From Patescibacteria group bacterium (lineage in GTDB: Bacteria; Patescibacteriota; Microgenomatia; UBA12405), in NCBI GenBank assembly GCA_038062455.1, contig JBBTXE010000001.1, forward strand, positions 381,760 to 445,759: DNA of 64,000 bases, in the 5' to 3' direction. This document shows positions 4,751 to 34,668 of the stretch, one piece after another. The notes beneath the pieces are model-generated. The model had not been told where the DNA came from, did no database searches, and worked only from the letters and a program-made list of their open reading frames with translations. A program made the translations under genes and the position numbers. Position 1 is the stretch's first letter. Every line of letters begins with the position of its first letter.

Positions 4751-4826
4751 GGTATCCCCAGCAGGGATCGAACCTGCGGCCTTCTCCTTAGAGGGGAGAC
4801 GCTCTATCCAACTGAGCTATGGGGAC
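4751..4826 (-). tRNA. tRNA-Arg (anticodon TCT)
   Basis: Reverse complement gives acceptor GTCCCCA/TGGGGAT, D-arm GCTCAGTTGGATAGAGC, anticodon loop CCTCTAA, and T-arm GCAGGTTCGATCCCTGC. Confidence 0.75.
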
Positions 4827-25165: not shown

Positions 25166-25195
25166 TTGACAAAGAAGGGAAGTTCAAACTACAAT
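25166..25195 (+). promoter_or_regulatory. sigma70-like promoter TTGACA-N18-TACAAT driving the radical-SAM cassette (mRNA nearly leaderless)
   Basis: Exact consensus -35 (25166-25171) and near-consensus -10 TACAAT (25190-25195). The ATG follows at 25206, ~10 nt downstream. Confidence 0.45.
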
Positions 25196-25205
25196 ACTTA
25201 ATCTA

Positions 25206-26390
25206 ATGAAATTGGAGACATATCGGATAAACGATGAAGTTTATTTAGTTGAAGGACGTCGGCGAGCAGCCGTTTATGATTTGGAGTCGGGTAGCGTATT
25301 TTCGATAAATGACAGTGCTAAAAGAATAATTCTCGAACAAAGGAAGGGTGATCAATTTTATTCTGATTTGGTTGGATGTGGCTTAGCGAATCCCGAATTA
25401 ACCCCGGACGTGTCGATGGTGGATAGTGACCAAAAACCACACTTATCTTTTTTGTGGTGCGAAGTAACCAAAAGATGTAATTTAAAGTGCGTTCATTGCT
25501 ATAACGGTGATATAAAAGAACATGATGATTTTGAACCTAACTTAGATGGATTATTTAAAAGAATCTATGAAGGTTTGAGAGTAGGGGCTGATAAGATTCA
25601 ATTTATCGGCGGTGAGCCTTTTACAATAAGTTCAATTCTTGATATGGCGGAGTTTGCAGTAAAAAGTGGTTATTCCTTTGTTGAGATATTTACAAATGCT
25701 ACAAAAATTAGCCAGAAAGATATATATCGAATAAAGGAACTGGGTTTAAATATAGCTATTTCCCTTTATTCTGATGTTGCCGAAATTCATGACAAAGTGA
25801 CCCAAGTTCCTGGTAGTTTCAGTCGGACGAGAAGGACTATGGATAAGTTAAAAGAAGCAAAAATCCCAACCCGCGTAGGGGTTGTGGTTATGAGGATTAA
25901 TCAAGACACAATTGGGGGGACTTTAGAAATGATTAAACAGTTTGGTTTTGAGGGTGGCGACAATGTAGATATTGTTAGATTGGTTGGGAGATCGTCAAAA
26001 TCATTACTGCCAAAAAGAGAAATTATTACAAAATACGGAGTGAGTTTAAAACCTTCTTTTACGACAAGTAGAGAAGAGTTTCAAAATAATCGGAAATTTA
26101 ATCCATGTTGGGGGGGGAAAGTTGCAGTTAGAGCTGATTTGGCTATTACTCCGTGCATAATGGACAAAACTTTATTAGCAGAAAGTGGTGTTCCTATGGC
26201 AGAATGTTTGGAATCAGAGAAATTAGAAAGTTTTTGGGGAATTACAAAAGATAAGATTAATGGATGCAACGGATGTGAGTATCGTTATGCTTGTGGTGAT
26301 TGCCGGGTAGTTGCTAAGGCCGAAACTGGATCTTATTATGGAAAAACATCAAGATGTTCATATAATCCAAATACAGGTCAATGGTGTTAA
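25206..26390 (+). CDS. radical SAM / SPASM-domain peptide-modifying enzyme with an N-terminal RRE (PqqD-like) region
   Basis: CNLKCVHC is the Cx3Cx2C radical-SAM cluster motif. The C-terminal Cys-rich SPASM region reads CWGGK...PC...CNGCEYRYACGDCRV...SRCSYNP. The first ~85 aa (VYLVEGRRRAAVYDLESGSVFSINDSAKRII) resemble RiPP recognition elements. Confidence 0.75.
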   Translation: MKLETYRINDEVYLVEGRRRAAVYDLESGSVFSINDSAKRIILEQRKGDQFYSDLVGCGLANPELTPDVSMVDSDQKPHLSFLWCEVTKRCNLKCVHCYNGDIKEHDDFEPNLDGLFKRIYEGLRVGADKIQFIGGEPFTISSILDMAEFAVKSGYSFVEIFTNATKISQKDIYRIKELGLNIAISLYSDVAEIHDKVTQVPGSFSRTRRTMDKLKEAKIPTRVGVVVMRINQDTIGGTLEMIKQFGFEGGDNVDIVRLVGRSSKSLLPKREIITKYGVSLKPSFTTSREEFQNNRKFNPCWGGKVAVRADLAITPCIMDKTLLAESGVPMAECLESEKLESFWGITKDKINGCNGCEYRYACGDCRVVAKAETGSYYGKTSRCSYNPNTGQWC

Positions 26391-26404
26391 TAATTTAAAT
26401 ATAT

Positions 26405-26599
26405 ATGCTAAAACAAGAAAAGAAAAAAACAGAACCTGGTGAAAAACCAGAAATAATACTGGTGAGTCCACGAGTGACTTTTGATGAAACTGGACATTCT
26501 ATGAACCCAACATGTCCTCCGGATTGTATGCCATATTGTGGGCCTTACTGTAAGCCAAATTGTAGACCGGCAACTTATTGTCGACCGGTGGGTAATTAA
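26405..26599 (+). CDS. candidate RiPP precursor peptide (64 aa): Lys/Glu-rich leader + Cys/Pro-repeat core
   Basis: MLKQEKKKTEPGEKPEIILVSPRVTFDETGHSMNPT|CPPDCMPYCGPYCKPNCRPATYCRPVGN. Five Cys sit at a regular i+4 spacing, each followed by Pro, and a sixth follows. The gene lies directly downstream of the rSAM/SPASM gene. Confidence 0.5.
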   Translation: MLKQEKKKTEPGEKPEIILVSPRVTFDETGHSMNPTCPPDCMPYCGPYCKPNCRPATYCRPVGN

Positions 26600-27382
26600 A
26601 TGATTTGGAAATATTACGGAACCATTAGAGATTTTGATCTGATAGAAAAATCTTTGAACTTAGTCTGGGACGAAAAACTAGACACTTTTTTTACCAACAA
26701 AAAACTGATCTCTGAAGTTAATGTGATTTCTTTTGACTCGGAATATTTATATTTATGGGTAAGAAATAAAAACATTTGGGAAAGAAACAAAATACCACAT
26801 AAACTAAAATTTTCAGAGTATGACCGAAAAGGTTGGAGCGCCTGGTCTGATCCTGAGGTAATCAGTTATTTGCCGCCTAGTTTGCGGTGGAATTATTCCA
26901 TTATTGGAAGTTTGCCGACTGTTTTTATAAATACACAGAAAAAAATAAAAAACAGTATTTATAATACTGAAGATAGTTTTACGGCGACAATTATCCATGA
27001 ATTTGCCCACATTTATTGTCGGAGTTACTGGGATGAATTTAGAACAAATAAGTTTAAGGTGGTTAGTTTTTTAAAAGGAAAATCTAAAATAGGTGAAATT
27101 GAGCCGCCCCCGTCGCATTTGGAGGAGGTATTCGCTTTTTGTGTTGAACATGAGGTTTCAAAGAAAATATTTCCCCGACATGCGATAAATATAGATAACA
27201 GTGATAAAAAATATCTTGAGAAAATTTTAAAACAAGAAAAAATGAGGAGTATTAAACAAGCATCAGTTTTTGCCCATGACAATGCCAATCACATTATTGC
27301 AATGGTGTTGGGAAGGAAATTAATAAAAGAATATCCAACTGATTGGGGAGAAAAAATTTTGAATTTAAAATATTGCTTTTAG
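26600..27382 (+). CDS. HExxH-motif protein (putative zinc metallopeptidase / leader peptidase candidate)
   Basis: TATIIHEFAHIY contains HEFAH. The gene start abuts the precursor stop (TAAATG). No other family assignment is possible by eye. Confidence 0.35.
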   Translation: MIWKYYGTIRDFDLIEKSLNLVWDEKLDTFFTNKKLISEVNVISFDSEYLYLWVRNKNIWERNKIPHKLKFSEYDRKGWSAWSDPEVISYLPPSLRWNYSIIGSLPTVFINTQKKIKNSIYNTEDSFTATIIHEFAHIYCRSYWDEFRTNKFKVVSFLKGKSKIGEIEPPPSHLEEVFAFCVEHEVSKKIFPRHAINIDNSDKKYLEKILKQEKMRSIKQASVFAHDNANHIIAMVLGRKLIKEYPTDWGEKILNLKYCF

Positions 27383-27393
27383 TCGAACCGAAC

Positions 27394-28173
27394 CTAGTCG
27401 CTTAACACCGACCCCTCGGCCACCACTCCGGTTAATAAAAACGACGGCACCGAATAACGCTTTCGAATCACAATACTTTTTTCCACCCTGGTTGCCTCCG
27501 CCCCGGCCTCCGCCCCTCCTGCCCTACCTATCGAAGTTATGTCAGTCCCTTGGGATACAAAAGAAGTTCCGGGAAGCCCTAAAGCATAAAATTTCCCCCC
27601 GTTAACCACCGGCGTTACTGCGATTAATAATGGCGAGGGTGGTGTCGCCACAGTTCTGCAACCACCGCCGCCAAAATCAAGCAAATCCCGTCTTAGTTTG
27701 AAATTAACTCCGCTTTTGTAAAAATAATCAATTGTCGCCGATCCGGTAAAACCCACTCCGCAAACACTGACACTGGCGCCGCTATAATAGGTTGTCCCGA
27801 TGTTACCATTGGCATCATGATTTACCAGCCAAAAAAATTCAACTCCTCCCTTGGGGGTATATTCCCCAAAGTCAATTCGGGTACTGCCGACACTTATTTC
27901 CGTCGCCCTAATGTCCGCTGTCGACACCTGGTCCGGAGATGCATAACCTGTTCCCCCTGTCCCTAAATAATAATCTACTCCCGATTCAGCCGCATTAAAG
28001 GCTTTTTTCAAAAGTTCATCGTTGATGTCAATTTTCGTTTCCACTACCGCTCTTTTGGCCATTGATAATCCCATGGTCAGCATCACCGCCGAAACTAGCA
28101 ACACAATAATTGCCACCTGCCCCCTTTTAGGGGAATTATCAACACTCAATAACCAATTATCAATCAATTTCAT
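27394..28173 (-). CDS. hypothetical exported Gly-rich protein
   Basis: N-terminal TM/signal segment (VAIIVLLVSAVMLTMGL) and a Gly-rich body. Confidence 0.3.
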   Translation of the reverse strand: MKLIDNWLLSVDNSPKRGQVAIIVLLVSAVMLTMGLSMAKRAVVETKIDINDELLKKAFNAAESGVDYYLGTGGTGYASPDQVSTADIRATEISVGSTRIDFGEYTPKGGVEFFWLVNHDANGNIGTTYYSGASVSVCGVGFTGSATIDYFYKSGVNFKLRRDLLDFGGGGCRTVATPPSPLLIAVTPVVNGGKFYALGLPGTSFVSQGTDITSIGRAGGAEAGAEATRVEKSIVIRKRYSVPSFLLTGVVAEGSVLSD

Positions 28174-28178
28174 AATGT

Positions 28179-28529
28179 CTAAATTTTCAATTTTGAACTC
28201 CTAATTATTTTAGAGAAAATCAAAAGTATTTGCTTTGTTTCACTATACACCTCCCGTATCTTCTCTTTACTATCATTTTCAGCTCTTGCCAATAGTCTCA
28301 ACCAATGCAATGTCTCTTTTATTTCTTTTCTGGCAATACCCATTTTATGAATAAAATCTTTCTTGCTTTCTGATTCTGTCGCCTCACAATAATTTGCCCC
28401 AATTGATCCAGTAGAACCAACTAACTGATTAATTATTCTCGAATTTATCGGGCTCAATTTCATTGTTTTTACCAAATCAATCACCGTCTCTCCCAATTTT
28501 GCCGTCCGTTCTTCCAAGTCAAATTCCAT
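28179..28529 (-). CDS. four-helix-bundle protein (23S rRNA intervening-sequence protein family)
   Basis: The sequence is IGANYCEATESESKKDFIHKMGIARKEIKETLHWLRL. It closely parallels the paralog at 46948-47313 (NIAEGFSRRS..EKKQFYYLSLGSLTEVQNQM). Confidence 0.6.
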   Translation of the reverse strand: MEFDLEERTAKLGETVIDLVKTMKLSPINSRIINQLVGSTGSIGANYCEATESESKKDFIHKMGIARKEIKETLHWLRLLARAENDSKEKIREVYSETKQILLIFSKIIRSSKLKI

Positions 28530-28606: not shown

Positions 28607-30886
28607 TTAATATTCTCTCCACCCCGATAATAATTTAGTTAATTTTCCCGGCATATTAAAAATAAAATCCGGCCGATACTTGACCGCCACTGCCGGACTG
28701 GCATTATTATCTTCCTTAACCGTATAACTCCTGTTTATCCTCACATTCTTCTCCTTCACTGAATATAAAATCCCATTTACCACTAGCTGCGTATTACTGT
28801 TTCCACCGATGTTTATCCCTCCGTCAGCCACATAAATTCCATCCAGCTGATTAACTCCGGCCTCAACCGTAATACCACCGCTGACTATCACCATCAAAAA
28901 CTTTCCCGCCGGTACTGCCACATTACTGCTGACGGTTAAACCTCCATCAACAAACACTACTCCGGTACTGCCGGCCCCGGCAATACTGGTATTGGTTACC
29001 CCTTGGCCATGATTTAGAAAATACCGGCTATATAAATACTGATAATTATAACCCTCATCCGCCACAATATTGTCGACAATCCGCCAATTATTAGGCCAGC
29101 CATATTGAGACGCATCATTCCAGCCATTGGTATTATAGTAAGTTGTCGAGGCCACGACACTATTATTTGACCCTCCGATTCCGGCATTATCTATTGTCAG
29201 AGTCGACGATGCCGTTACCGGCACTCCGCTTCTGATTCCGCTTCGCGCCTTCACTCCGCCGCCCCAAACCTGAAACCAGTTTTCCTGATCCCGGATAAAA
29301 GAAAAATCAATTCGACTGGATTCATTGGTGGAATAGGCCGATACTTTACTGCTAACGCTAAACTGACTGCTGCCGGGACAATAGGTGGTGCCAACGCCAA
29401 GATCAATCCATCGGGTAAAACGGCCGCTGCCGCTGATATCCCCATCGGGATTGGCCACATTCCCGCCATTAAAAATCGGCAAATAACTTTGACTCCAGAT
29501 CAAATCGCCGCCGCTAAAACTGGCCGGTGTCGACACATTCACCGTCACGTCATTACCCCCGGACATATTGGTAAAAATCAAAGAATTAAAATTCAGATTA
29601 CTGCCGGCCGTCACTGTAAATCCGGTATTATTGCAGGCCTGTCCCGCCGATCCGTCATAAAGTTTTCCCGACACCGGCACTAAACAATCCCACACTTTCC
29701 AGGAATAGATACTATCCACCCACCCCGAACTGGAATAGATGTCTTCAGCTAAAAATGCCAAAGGGTAAGTCGAAGCGCTATTATTCCCACTGCTAAAATC
29801 AACCGTCACACTGGCCGTCAACCCAACCCCCGCGCTGGTACCCAAACTTAGGTTATAAATATTTCCATTCCACCTCATTTGGACTGTTTGAATTTGGTCA
29901 GCTCCGTCATCGTCAGTCACCCTCGCCTCAAAACGAACCCGGCGGGGCAGGGGATCACTATAAAAAACCGGCTTGCATATTTGATTCCGATTCCCCGCGT
30001 CCCAGGACACTACCGTTCCGCTTGAGTTTTTCAAAACCACGATACTTACCGAAGGAATACTATTCAGCCTAAAATACCCCCGACTCGACCAACCACCAAT
30101 ATCTGTCCCGCAAGTGGTGTTCACCGCCCTCACCCGCCAGGAATACGCGCTTCCCATAATTAACGAACCGGTTCTGATTGATGTCGAAGTAGTTGTTCCC
30201 GTCCAGGCCACACTATTGCCGGCGTCCAATACTTGAGCCTCATAATAATCGGTCAACGCCGGCACGCTATTCCACACCAACGTCGCCGTCGTTCCCGGTG
30301 AAACCACTACCGGATTCGCTAAAGTCCCAATCGGCGACACAATTGCCGGCGCCGCCGGCGCCCCATTATCGGCATTGCTGCAATTTCCCCCACAATCCAA
30401 CGCCTGCCCGCACCTTGGGCTACAAACCACACATTCCTTGCAAGCCACAGTATTCGTCCAACTTAATACGTTGTCACACAAGGTCGAACAAGTACAACTT
30501 TCTGTAGTGCTACCGCAGTTCTGGCTGCAGGAAATAGTTGAATTTATACACACCGCATCATCGCAGGTCCAACACCCTGAAGTTGCAAAAGTATATTCCG
30601 CCCCACAAGCGAGTTGGGTACAAGTATCACTACACTTTGAAATACACCTACTAAGATGACAACAACCGCCGTTACATTCTGCCCAAAAAGCACACACAGA
30701 AGTCCCACTCTGAGTAGTGCTTATCGTTATACATTGAGAAGTCAACGGGTTCCATGTGCAAGTGACGGACGTACTTTCAAAGGGTCCACTACCATTACAC
30801 CGCAATGTGGCAAAACTCGGAATCCGAACCCAACCAAAAAGCCAAATCAGGATCAATAATATCAACCAAAAACACCGCTTAGTCAT
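28607..30886 (-). CDS. large secreted Cys-rich surface protein (signal peptide, ~40-Cys N-terminal module, beta-helix-like Gly/Asn/Ser-rich C-terminus)
   Basis: 759 aa. N-terminal signal helix. Residues ~30-170 are packed with Cys (CxxC / CC pairs). Confidence 0.4.
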   Translation of the reverse strand: MTKRCFWLILLILIWLFGWVRIPSFATLRCNGSGPFESTSVTCTWNPLTSQCITISTTQSGTSVCAFWAECNGGCCHLSRCISKCSDTCTQLACGAEYTFATSGCWTCDDAVCINSTISCSQNCGSTTESCTCSTLCDNVLSWTNTVACKECVVCSPRCGQALDCGGNCSNADNGAPAAPAIVSPIGTLANPVVVSPGTTATLVWNSVPALTDYYEAQVLDAGNSVAWTGTTTSTSIRTGSLIMGSAYSWRVRAVNTTCGTDIGGWSSRGYFRLNSIPSVSIVVLKNSSGTVVSWDAGNRNQICKPVFYSDPLPRRVRFEARVTDDDGADQIQTVQMRWNGNIYNLSLGTSAGVGLTASVTVDFSSGNNSASTYPLAFLAEDIYSSSGWVDSIYSWKVWDCLVPVSGKLYDGSAGQACNNTGFTVTAGSNLNFNSLIFTNMSGGNDVTVNVSTPASFSGGDLIWSQSYLPIFNGGNVANPDGDISGSGRFTRWIDLGVGTTYCPGSSQFSVSSKVSAYSTNESSRIDFSFIRDQENWFQVWGGGVKARSGIRSGVPVTASSTLTIDNAGIGGSNNSVVASTTYYNTNGWNDASQYGWPNNWRIVDNIVADEGYNYQYLYSRYFLNHGQGVTNTSIAGAGSTGVVFVDGGLTVSSNVAVPAGKFLMVIVSGGITVEAGVNQLDGIYVADGGINIGGNSNTQLVVNGILYSVKEKNVRINRSYTVKEDNNASPAVAVKYRPDFIFNMPGKLTKLLSGWREY

Positions 30887-30922: not shown

Positions 30923-33022
30923 CTACTTTCCTAAGGAGAAAGTTGCCCCGCCATGAAAAAAGTTAAATGACACAAAATCCGAAACGAAATAATTTTCATT
31001 TGAAGAAATATCAGGTATCACCTCTGCAATTTTTTCGGCTATAATATTCCTTCCGTAATAATCCAAAAAAAGTTGCGTCAAATTTCCATTTCTTATCTCA
31101 CCTCCATCCGTGTACAACAAAGCATTAAAACATTTATTTAGTGGGGTAATGTGTGTGTGCATCCATCGGATTTGCGAATCGCTAGATCCATATATTAATC
31201 CAAAAACAACTATTTTCCCCTCGTTTTCTGCCAGCTTGCCCTGCAATTGATCAAACGACACCAACTCGCTCTGAAGAGATCCGGGCACATAAGTAGTGCT
31301 CCTTGACGAAGAAGTCATTGCTATTGAGGTAAAACTGGCGTCATTTATGCCCTCATAACCGGTAACCACCGGCAGTACCACCCTATTCCCGCCGATTTCC
31401 ACTCCAAAAAAGGAAATGGTAACCCGTGTTTCAGCATCATAATTTACCTGCCGCCCGCCAAGATAAATCCCCTGCCAAGAACTGTGTAAAGATGTACCGA
31501 TCAAAGAATCACCGGACCGATATTCACTAGTTCCTACTTGCATCAAACCCAAAGTGCGATCCCTTACTCCCATCTTTTCAGCCAATGAATGTCCATCAAT
31601 ACCAATTGGAAAGATATACGTTGATTCATTATATGTCTGGTCAGGAATAAAAGCGTTTTGATTCACCCAATCCCGATACTCCCGCTCCGGCATATTTAAA
31701 AAAGCTTCCGCATTTTGTTCAATCTTCACCATTTCCGTTAGATCAGCGGCCACCTTATATTCCCCATCCGTTATCTTTCCTGTCTTCGGGTCCACGTATC
31801 TTAAGGCCCTACCGGTATTTTTGTCCGCCACTTGATAGACCAGTTGACTCCCTTCCCCCACGGTAGTTAGCTCTTCGTTTGGTCCAACGGTGACAAAAAG
31901 CGGCCGATCTCCAACCGGATCCTCCTGCCCCTCGGTTGGTAATTGTCTTAAACCACCGTTTACTAAATCCAGTGGCGGGCACAATAATTGCCCCGCATAA
32001 TTTCCTTTGCCTTTGGTATCCACACAAACCACATTTGCTCCACTTCCGGGCAATGGAACTTTGGCCAAACTATTCCCCGGCCCGCCAATTTCCTGCTGCT
32101 GCACCACCATCATTTTTGCCCATAAATTGACCCAATTAGCAATATCCTTTTCTCCTCGACTATAATCACCGCTATCATATTTCGTTTGAGTTTCCGGATC
32201 AGTTATTGTCGGATTAAGATCAATCGGCGGTGCCCCGTATTCCGATGTCACTGCTGGAGCCACCATTGTCTCCGTTACCGACACCGCAGTTGAAATTCCG
32301 CCTGGCACCGGAGCCGTCTCCGACGGCAAAATTAGCGGCTGGACCCTGGTACAAGCAACTTCAGTTGCTCCAACCAACAAAGTAATCCCCGTCACCGCTG
32401 CAAAAGCCTTTCCAAGTTTACCACTTGAAAGACGATCCATGGCCCTGTCGAAGGGAAGCTCTGGTCCTGTTGGTGATACTCCCCAATATTCATCTCTCTT
32501 TTTTATTCTATCGCCTTTTTTTATTTTACTTTGCTCTGGATGCAAAACATCAACTTTTATTTCCTCTATTCCCCGGCATCTTAATTTCCACCAGCCGTTT
32601 TCAATCTTATCCACCAAAGCAAAATATTCTCTTTTCCCACCGGTCAATCCATACCCTAAATTTACCACTTCATCAGTCCCATTCACCCTTCTTTTAAGTC
32701 TTTGTATCTCCAGTCTATGCTCATCAACCAATGCCTTTCTTGCCACTGCGTCAAACCACTCCACCACCCCTTTTTTTTCTTCCCGATAACTACCAAAACC
32801 CAACCTTCCGTTGCTTTTTACCCACCGCCCCAACTTTGTTTTTATCTCATCGCCTCTATCGCCGCCCATTAAATCCATTAAAGCATTACCCACTGTCTGC
32901 GAAGGTGACATTCCCGGAAATTCCCTGGTGCTTACCCGCTCAGGACAAATAGGTTTGACAACCACCGGTTTCTCTTGACCAAATGCCCAATATGGAAACT
33001 CTCTTCTTCTTTCCTGTTTCAT
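30923..33022 (-). CDS. hypothetical large single-pass membrane protein (cytoplasmic N-terminal ~200 aa, TM helix, extracellular C-terminal domain)
   Basis: 699-aa ORF. The TM helix is AFAAVTGITLLVGATEVA. No recognisable catalytic motif. Confidence 0.35.
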   Translation of the reverse strand: MKQERRREFPYWAFGQEKPVVVKPICPERVSTREFPGMSPSQTVGNALMDLMGGDRGDEIKTKLGRWVKSNGRLGFGSYREEKKGVVEWFDAVARKALVDEHRLEIQRLKRRVNGTDEVVNLGYGLTGGKREYFALVDKIENGWWKLRCRGIEEIKVDVLHPEQSKIKKGDRIKKRDEYWGVSPTGPELPFDRAMDRLSSGKLGKAFAAVTGITLLVGATEVACTRVQPLILPSETAPVPGGISTAVSVTETMVAPAVTSEYGAPPIDLNPTITDPETQTKYDSGDYSRGEKDIANWVNLWAKMMVVQQQEIGGPGNSLAKVPLPGSGANVVCVDTKGKGNYAGQLLCPPLDLVNGGLRQLPTEGQEDPVGDRPLFVTVGPNEELTTVGEGSQLVYQVADKNTGRALRYVDPKTGKITDGEYKVAADLTEMVKIEQNAEAFLNMPEREYRDWVNQNAFIPDQTYNESTYIFPIGIDGHSLAEKMGVRDRTLGLMQVGTSEYRSGDSLIGTSLHSSWQGIYLGGRQVNYDAETRVTISFFGVEIGGNRVVLPVVTGYEGINDASFTSIAMTSSSRSTTYVPGSLQSELVSFDQLQGKLAENEGKIVVFGLIYGSSDSQIRWMHTHITPLNKCFNALLYTDGGEIRNGNLTQLFLDYYGRNIIAEKIAEVIPDISSNENYFVSDFVSFNFFHGGATFSLGK

Positions 33023-33187: not shown

Positions 33188-33938
33188 CTATTTCCTAATT
33201 TCGGCAAAATTTAACCCTGACAGATAACTATCAATTTCTTCGTCATTCAAGCCTTCGGAAAAGTAAATTGATTGAAGCTCATTTTGCTTGTCACCCTTCG
33301 CTAATCGCCAATTACTTTTGATATTCCGGGAACTAACCGGTTTCCTGATTTCTTTCTTTTTAACCAACCTAATCACTTCGTCCAAATCTATCGCCAGTTT
33401 CTTATTGATCATTGAAAAATCGTAAAAATCACGGTATCTAACTCTGTCATTCATAGCCCGAATTTTTTCGGCTACAATTTCAGCAATATCCATAACCATC
33501 ACTTTGGCTTCCACCCCATATTGATTGTGATAAATCATTTCCCTGGGAGGCAAAACAACATTCTGAAGAAAATCAATTTCTACCTTAAGTGAATTTGGCT
33601 GGGCCAGGGGACCGGTATACAACAATCTTTCAATTTTATAGGTAGCATCAGAAACATAGAACCGACTTCACCTCCTCAAGATCAATTCCCGCCCGATTAG
33701 TCGAAAAGTCCAAATCTTCTGAAAACCTAAACTGCGGCAAATAGGTGTGATACAAAGCGGTACCACCCTTAAATATTAACTTTGTTTTTAACACTGAACC
33801 ATAGATTATCTTACACACCAGTGCCAAAAAATAATCCTTTTCGGCGATAGCTAAAGGATACTTAAGTTGACGGTTAAGAAGAGTTAAGGTAACTTTATCC
33901 AATAATTCGATTATCATAGTAAATTCGCCACTTAGCAT
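33188..33938 (-). pseudogene. AbiEii-like nucleotidyltransferase toxin, split by a frameshift into 96-aa and 145-aa ORFs
   Basis: The N-terminal fragment has FKGGTALYHTY...RFSEDLDFS. The C-terminal fragment aligns with the C-terminus of the intact paralog at 34790-35509. The frames differ across 33625-33648. Confidence 0.5.
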
Positions 33939-34668
33939 TAAATGTCTTTGATTCCTTCGTGAATCGGGATAAGCCTTTATTTTCCGCCAATATTCGGTAA
34001 AGCCCTTGGGTATTTACCCCCAACTGATCGAGAAAAAAACCAATTTTGCGTCTGATCGTCATATCAGATCTTAAAGCATAATTCTGTAACTTATTTAAAT
34101 CCAAACTTTCCTGATACTCTCTTAATTTTTCAAAAACTACACTGGCCGAAGTATAACTCTTATCCAGATATAGATAATCAATCAAAGCTTTTTCAACATC
34201 GGCAATTCTTACTATTTTTCCGGCCTCTATCTTTTGGGAAAAACCAAAAAACATATTCTCTTTAACTTTGGCAAATTTAAAGACAAAATCATCAAAAATG
34301 TATTTCTTGGAATCGGCAGTAGTCACTGACACAATAGTCTTAGAATATTGGTCAAACATATGATAATAATTAAGAGCATAGGAAAGACTAATATAAGAAC
34401 TCTTATTTAAAGCATTGGCGATAAGCATTAGCGAATTATCGTTTTGGAAACGAGAGCTTAAGTTTTCAATAACCAGATATAATCCCCGCTTAATTCGTTT
34501 CAACCAACCGGCCTTGGTTAGTTTTTGGATACGATTATGAGCCGACAAATTTGAATACTCAATTCTAAAAATAGTCATTAGATCATCAATACCCACAATT
34601 CGGCCGTATTTTAGGATTATCTGCTCGATTAAGTTAGTATCCTTTTCGGTTAAAATTGTAGTTTTCAT
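33895..34668 (-). CDS. AbiEi-like antitoxin / transcriptional regulator (wHTH N-terminus)
   Basis: KLTKAGWLKRIKRGLYLV is the AbiEi-type 'RGLY' wHTH motif. It is paired with the downstream nucleotidyltransferase gene. Confidence 0.5.
   Translation of the reverse strand: MKTTILTEKDTNLIEQIILKYGRIVGIDDLMTIFRIEYSNLSAHNRIQKLTKAGWLKRIKRGLYLVIENLSSRFQNDNSLMLIANALNKSSYISLSYALNYYHMFDQYSKTIVSVTTADSKKYIFDDFVFKFAKVKENMFFGFSQKIEAGKIVRIADVEKALIDYLYLDKSYTSASVVFEKLREYQESLDLNKLQNYALRSDMTIRRKIGFFLDQLGVNTQGLYRILAENKGLSRFTKESKTFNAKWRIYYDNRIIG

Follow-up and report, generated by a model that had tools for sequence, protein, structure and literature searches.

A radical SAM/SPASM cassette of Patescibacteria and the C-x-P repeat peptides, a widespread family of candidate substrates

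What does a radical S-adenosylmethionine (SAM) enzyme do to the small Cys-rich peptide that is encoded beside it? The question is raised by a three-gene, same-strand cassette in a 64,000-nucleotide stretch of a Patescibacteria group bacterium genome (assembly GCA_038062455.1, contig JBBTXE010000001.1, positions 381,760 to 445,759), referred to here, at its full length, as the window. The cassette lies at 25206-27382 on the plus strand and comprises a radical SAM/SPASM peptide maturase of 394 amino acids (aa) (25206..26390), assigned from its PF04055 match, its Cys motifs and its homologs; a precursor peptide gene of 64 aa plus stop (26405..26599), assigned from its translation, shuffles and orthologs; and a 260-aa HExxH protein (26600..27382), a putative leader peptidase by motif, fold and co-occurrence. 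A gap of 14 nucleotides (nt) separates the stop codon of the enzyme from the ATG of the peptide, and the ATG of the HExxH gene abuts the peptide stop codon. Our analysis indicates that the peptide is probably a precursor of the RiPP type (a peptide that is synthesized ribosomally and modified post-translationally) for the upstream SPASM enzyme, receiving one modification per C-x-P unit, most likely a thioether, with the leader removed by the HExxH protein.

The peptide gene itself is real and conserved. The open reading frame (ORF) at 26405-26599 was confirmed and translates as MLKQEKKKTEPGEKPEIILVSPRVTFDETGHSMNPTCPPDCMPYCGPYCKPNCRPATYCRPVGN. Its Cys residues 37, 41, 45, 49, 53, and 59 (spacings 4, 4, 4, 4, and 6) all stand in the tripeptide C-x-P (CPP, CMP, CGP, CKP, CRP, and CRP), and unit count and family statistics delimit a core of six such units (CPPD CMPY CGPY CKPN CRPATY CRPVGN, residues 37-64, 26513..26596 on the plus strand). 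At least six C-x-P arose in one of 200,000 shuffles of the whole peptide and in two of 200,000 shuffles confined to its last 29 residues; the six frames of the window hold 1,057 stop-to-stop segments that are 30 aa or longer, and the runner-up among them contains two. An ortholog, P0122 at locus L001, shares 77% identity and retains every C-x-P, and the codons of the two genes comprise 32 that are identical, 17 with synonymous changes only and 14 with non-synonymous changes, a pattern that argues for constraint at the protein level and thus for a translated gene. A chance ORF is excluded by the shuffles, by the uniqueness of the peptide in the window, and by this substitution pattern. A second ortholog is found at locus L002, and both orthologous loci retain all three cassette genes. 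The peptide sequence is on record from Logan assemblies only and has no NCBI record; since the adjoining enzyme does have one, in the form of an identical protein (P0001) from a Patescibacteria-group metagenome-assembled genome, the deposited annotation appears to have overlooked the peptide gene.

A word-index protein search with the peptide returned only the peptide itself and one ortholog, and its family was therefore reached via the enzyme. At least 141 homologs of the enzyme were present in the protein collection, and pattern scans recovered 442 related stretches in a genome collection that represents each species once, and over 517 in metagenomes. We surveyed 162 loci, consisting of the best 80 from each of the two pattern scans and the two orthologous loci, and counted ORFs that possess at least three C-x-P units and have most of their Cys in C-x-P. 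Such an ORF adjoins the enzyme gene at 124 of the 162 loci, directly downstream on the same strand in 92 and directly upstream in 27. At eight of the remaining loci the contig ends at the enzyme gene, and at several others (L008, L012, L085, L086, L127, and L140) there is an ORF that has a leader and carries one or two units. The first-pass annotation, made from the sequence alone, had proposed a precursor-like peptide coupled to a radical SAM/SPASM enzyme, had suggested a metagenome search for its kind beside such genes, and had named absence of the ORF from syntenic cassettes as the finding that would speak against it. The conserved adjacency bears out the coupling, and it is presence rather than absence that the survey found.

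The bacterial hosts are Patescibacteria, Negativicutes (Sporomusa, Pelosinus, Anaerospora, Lucifera, and others), Chloroflexota, Deltaproteobacteria, Latescibacterota, Krumholzibacteriota, and Elusimicrobia, and the archaeal hosts are Bathyarchaeia and Methanosarcinales. Clustering of the genes neighboring the surveyed loci brought out only two families of HExxH protein, an ABC transporter (10 loci), and the synteny of the Negativicutes loci, with no ATP-grasp and no other maturase. The Negativicutes pairs (e.g., L075 from Sporomusa ovata and L060 from Pelosinus propionicus) always stand beside tig-clpP-clpX and have neither peptidase nor transporter; their peptides are 90-150 aa long with near-identical repeats (CWPRQQ, CFPRQ) in up to about 20 copies. 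Pfam and NCBIfam scans assigned no family to the window peptide or to seven relatives, including no SCIFF or other precursor model, and no model in either collection names any component of the cassette. Related peptides are labeled "hypothetical protein" in RefSeq. A full-text literature search found no paper on C-x-P repeat peptides and radical SAM enzymes; subscription literature and large atlases were outside its scope, and an earlier listing is possible. The C-x-P peptides are a widespread and so far unnamed family in bacteria and archaea.

A comparison of 115 distinct peptides shows what the family conserves. In these, 1,177 of 1,230 Cys (96%) stand in C-x-P, against a Pro background of 26% of the cores, and each chain carries from 3 to 28 units, with a median of 9. 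The distance from unit to unit is 3 in 103 cases, 4 in 240, 5 in 263, 6 in 228, 7 in 105, and 8 in 47. Position x is free and none of the spacer positions shows conservation, which leaves the C-x-P tripeptide as the conserved element. The window peptide had at first been described by a tetrad with Cys at exact i+4 spacing and Tyr recurring at +3. The spacing is correct for Cys 37 to 53, and all six Cys are indeed in C-x-P, but the i+4 register is a local accident, and the family range of 3 to 8 rules out tetrad periodicity as a defining feature. Tyr at +3 occurs in only two window units (CMPY and CGPY) and is not conserved in the family. Both are peculiarities of the window member. Pro after each Cys had at first been assigned the role of rigidifying the ring topology; its near-absolute presence at +2 suggests that Pro belongs to the recognition or reaction unit itself.

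Upstream of the core, the leaders fall into types that are specific to clades and conserved inside them. In 41 distinct precursors, the motif (E)(E)P(T/E)I-x-L-V-(T/S)(P) precedes the first C-x-P by 6-17 residues, and the window sequence EKPEIILVSP (residues 13-22, 26441..26470 on the plus strand), taken as a leader recognition motif from this family consensus, belongs to the same PxIxLV type. A second type, PKWExPE(M/I), is found at 38 Negativicutes loci, and PxIVCVT and KPVVETL are among the minor types. The N-terminal 36 residues of the window peptide have a net charge of 0 and no hydrophobic core, the highest 9-residue Kyte-Doolittle mean being 1.5 at IILVSPRVT; this hydropathy speaks against a Sec signal, and the non-secretory leader of the first-pass annotation stands. 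Behind the last C-x-P, many precursors with the PxIxLV leader (e.g., L007, L018, L023, L042, L110, L117, and L159) have a Pro-rich tail, PPxPPxPGP(N/H/S), which is missing from the window peptide, whose end is CRPVGN.

Some members are far from small leader peptides in their architecture. Three Deltaproteobacteria-type proteins (L011, L094, and L098), encoded directly 3' of the enzyme gene, combine a signal of twin-arginine-like type (SRRxFIK with a hydrophobic stretch), C-x-P repeats, and a C-terminal peptidoglycan (PG)-binding domain, PG_binding_1 (PF01471, 1e-13). C-x-P proteins of Bathyarchaeia/Thermoproteota (L027, L031, L034, and L121) have a coiled-coil-like tail (...IDEITAKVERITAEIETLRKRI...). 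Two Bacillota members (L047 and L137) carry a C-terminal helical domain of about 100 aa, which is a separate ORF in nine loci. The layout of signal, repeats, and PG-binding domain in L011, L094, and L098, and in these alone, is that of HxsA, and this subset also gives a partial hit to TIGR03979. HxsA, which is matured by HxsB/HxsC, is a periplasmic anti-phage effector matured by radical SAM chemistry (PMC13128918), and the HXS system and, by our proposal, the C-x-P system both use radical SAM enzymes to mature a protein of tripeptide repeats. They differ in the repeat, C-x-P rather than H-x-S, with no HxS repeats here; in the use of one enzyme rather than two; and in the HxsC model, which gives the window enzyme 62.7 bits against a cut-off of 267.9. 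The window peptide, at 64 aa, has neither signal nor PG-binding domain.

The enzyme matches PF04055 with 64.6 bits and carries the CxxxCxxC cluster motif at C91, C95, and C98; the SAM-binding [4Fe-4S] motif and the radical SAM core fold are both present. Seven SPASM Cys (C301, C317, C354, C357, C363, C366, and C384) are invariant in 21 homologs, PF13186 is precomputed on most homologs, and TIGR04193 gives a partial match to the SPASM region (6e-18). The N-terminal domain, at about residues 1-60, is built of four strands and two helices and resembles a RiPP recognition element (RRE), and a profile match to CteB begins at residue 26. The enzyme thus combines an RRE-like domain with an adjoining leader-bearing precursor, as looked for in a peptide maturase. 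Among solved structures, SkfB and CteB match its sequence best, and the longest structural alignment is with CteB. The structural neighbors also include ChlB, whose radical SAM domain is among the top ones, and the structure comparison does not discriminate between chemistries. In the Pfam and NCBIfam scans, the enzyme falls below every equivalog cut-off, and PADLOC reports only generic, viperin-level radical SAM similarity.

In sactipeptides a thioether joins the Cys sulfur to an alpha-carbon, and in ranthipeptides to the beta- or gamma-carbon of an acceptor residue. By the mechanism that we propose for the C-x-P cassette, the leader motif would bind the N-terminal RRE-like domain as a beta-strand and the enzyme would act once per C-x-P unit along the core. 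The likeliest chemistry would be a local thioether from the Cys sulfur to a carbon of a near neighbor, as made by sacti- and ranthipeptide synthases, and the HExxH protein would then take off the leader. A thioether is favored because Cys is the invariant residue, because the solved structures closest to the enzyme in sequence are those of thioether synthases, and because seven rather than eight SPASM Cys would fit an auxiliary cluster with a free site for the substrate thiolate; CteB has such a cluster. Since units can be contiguous and x is free, a link made within each unit needs Pro(+2) or a backbone alpha-carbon as its acceptor, and the product would be a string of very small rings. Taken alone, the thioether as product falls a little short of an even chance in our estimate. 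Known sacti- and ranthipeptide systems (SkfB, CteB/SCIFF, and PapB/freyrasin) resemble the cassette in having a radical SAM enzyme with a SPASM/twitch domain and an N-terminal RRE-like domain, encoded beside a Cys-rich, leader-bearing precursor. PapB is described as modifying Cys/Asp pairs one at a time (PMC9413430), and repeated Cys motifs would likewise be treated singly here.

Several points weigh against this proposal. Among the 115 peptides there is no conserved acceptor residue besides C-x-P itself; the motif differs from those of the sacti- and ranthipeptide systems in having no conserved Asp, Glu, Thr, or Asn as acceptor and in units that may abut. We know of no precedent for a thioether to Pro; a thioether to Pro(+2) or to the backbone alpha-carbon, one per unit, would be new. 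The curated maturase and precursor models of these systems are unmatched by the window cassette, and those for the maturases score far under their cut-offs, with 62 against 625 for StsB and 43 against 850 for AlbA on the window enzyme, and 76 against 300 for SkfB on the homolog P0058. The window cassette has no transporter. The large multi-domain members bear a closer resemblance to modified structural or effector proteins than to small peptides that are secreted. Most likely as it is, the thioether rests on analogy.

The best surviving alternative, although an unlikely one, is that the enzyme carries out some other radical reaction, such as epimerization, a C-C or C-O cross-link, or modification of Pro, with the Cys serving as handles for recognition or cluster binding. 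This would agree with the structural neighbors of the enzyme, among which are ChlB (a cyclophane synthase), SuiB (a Lys-Trp cross-linker), TigE (a cyclopropylglycine synthase), and EpeE/YydG (an epimerase). Triceptide units begin with an aromatic residue and are closed by C-C bonds. Their maturases, such as ChlB, share the logic of a three-residue repeat unit with the C-x-P enzyme, but the unit here has Cys first and Pro last, and at the sequence level no family match exists. Non-sulfur chemistry applied repeat by repeat is also known, as in the TVGG repeats of TvgA (PMC9062424), whose repeat-unit logic is comparable. Against such a reaction, Cys is the sole residue that is never replaced, and SkfB and CteB, the best sequence relatives among solved structures, make thioethers.

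Somewhat less probable still is that the enzyme oxidizes each Cys at C-beta in the manner of an anaerobic sulfatase-maturating enzyme (anSME), giving formylglycine-type aldehydes or another conversion of Cys alone, with no cross-links. The anSME target motif in sulfatases is C/S-x-P-x-R, and the C-x-P core common to the two motifs is the likeness that recommends this reading. The Arg is not conserved in the C-x-P peptides, however, occurring at +4 in 40 of 832 Cys contexts, and the substrate is a dedicated leader-bearing repeat peptide rather than a sulfatase. The anSME model TIGR03942 gives 42 bits on the homolog P0034 against a cut-off of 349 and is not among the 25 best models for the window enzyme. 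The sequence match to anSME is confined to the radical SAM core (residues 92-252), and the conserved Cys of the SPASM region number seven and not eight.

The third protein of the cassette bears on how the thioether-type maturation proposed here would be completed. It contains HEFAH at 133-137 with invariant E176, H194, and H231, and its fold is gluzincin-like, the HExxH motif and downstream Glu being those of gluzincin metallopeptidases. Neither Pfam nor NCBIfam contains a family that matches it, it belongs to no named peptidase family, and Foldseek and PDB sequence searches returned no match; the protein family is a tiny orphan that amounts, in a set of 1.84 billion proteins, to 138 clusters at 50% identity. 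An HExxH protein is encoded at 35 of the 46 loci whose leader is of the PxIxLV type (29 of family A and 6 of an unrelated family B), and 6 of the other 11 are cut contigs; in Negativicutes-type loci the count is 0 of 38. Zinc peptidases of the M1 and M61 families are established RiPP leader peptidases (PMC10885120). Like the M1-type, AplP-like enzymes of that group (PMC10885120), the window protein has an HExxH-plus-Glu zincin fold and is encoded alongside a RiPP precursor, but it has only 260 aa, amounts to a bare catalytic-type domain and belongs to no named family. From these features, it probably removes the leader. There is a small chance, comparable to that of C-beta oxidation, that it is instead a tailoring oxygenase of the alpha-ketoglutarate/HExxH kind that is fused to some radical SAM peptide maturases. 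Beta-hydroxylation by HExxH domains fused to ChlB-type maturases is named in the title of reference 51 in PMC12912966, and the radical SAM domain of ChlB is a top structural neighbor of the window enzyme.

Finally, that the neighboring enzyme does not modify the peptide at all, the latter being a metal-binding or structural Cys/Pro-rich peptide or a chance reading frame, is very improbable: the peptide lacks an NCBI record and its relatives are annotated as hypothetical proteins, but enzyme and peptide genes stay adjacent in bacterial and archaeal phyla where the other neighbors are unrelated, the leader motifs are conserved, and the shuffles and the synonymous/non-synonymous pattern exclude a chance frame.

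With respect to known families, then, the cassette would appear from its sequences to work like a sacti- or ranthipeptide cassette, yet it lies outside the AlbA, SkfB, StsB, CXXX-repeat, anSME, and HXS families tested. In the CXXX-repeat case, the C-x-P family differs by a Cys spacing of 3-8 rather than a fixed 4, and the TIGRFAMs models of that system are unmatched, with none among the 25 best for the enzyme and zero hits from the peptide or from any of seven relatives. Familiar in kind, the system stands out by its motif rule, by its breadth (in bacteria as in archaea, with small peptides as well as multi-domain proteins), and by an acceptor that is likely unprecedented.

In the window, the cassette is flanked by pilM/N/O-like genes on one side and by further minus-strand genes on the other. 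A sigma-70-like promoter match by consensus (TTGACA-18-TACAAT, 11/12; 25166..25195, plus strand) lies just 5' of the radical SAM gene, inside the divergent gap from pilM. A second promoter-like consensus match (TGGAAA-16-TATAAT, 10/12; 26339..26366, plus strand) lies within the 3'-terminal part of the enzyme gene, some 40 nt 5' of the peptide start, and could add transcription of the precursor. Just past the cassette, the minus strand at 28179-28529 encodes a member of the four-helix-bundle "23S rRNA intervening sequence protein" family (TIGR02436, 4e-22; PF05635, 1e-15). Two large minus-strand ORFs of 759 aa (28607-30886) and 699 aa (30923-33022) have no Pfam match; the 759-aa ORF has a hydrophobic N-terminal segment, and its first ~170 residues are very Cys-rich. 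The pair is flanked by a PilX_N-like ORF (27394-28173) and an AbiEii/AbiEi pair (33188-34668). Farther away, ARAGORN reports a tRNA with anticodon CUA at 4751-4826 on the minus strand, labeled tRNA-Pyl, which would read UAG; it stands in a tRNA cluster with Lys-CTT, Arg-TCG, and Leu-TAG and folds as a clean cloverleaf (-27.8 kcal/mol). As TAG is the stop codon of 18 of the 49 long ORFs in the window, genome-wide recoding is ruled out, and this may be an amber-suppressor tRNA.

In conclusion, new peptide chemistry has one of its main sources in radical SAM/SPASM enzymes, where each new precursor motif has so far tended to uncover a new bond type. The C-x-P precursors form a clearly bounded class with a simple rule (Cys, then x-Pro), leaders that are conserved, and 442 or more genome hits at the species level in bacteria and archaea, and the window cassette is one of few devoted to peptide modification in the tiny Patescibacteria genomes. 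The fusion of some relatives to export signals and PG-binding domains suggests that the modification can also serve as a structural or effector module, comparable to the HxS-repeat anti-phage effector (PMC13128918). A bolder reading, which we regard as doubtful, is that C-x-P is the reaction unit of a new modification in which the Cys sulfur is joined to a carbon of the Pro at +2 or of the intervening residue, giving up to 28 consecutive three-residue thioether rings that would act as a scaffold in small peptides and in exported, cell-wall-bound proteins. If true, such rings would be the sulfur counterpart of the triceptide cyclophanes, and bacteria and archaea would possess a rigid modified module in exported, cell-wall-bound proteins besides small peptides. 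With three genes and six units, the window member is a minimal system well suited to co-expression and mass spectrometry, and the family is a good experimental target on account of its motif rule, its breadth, and an acceptor that is likely unprecedented.
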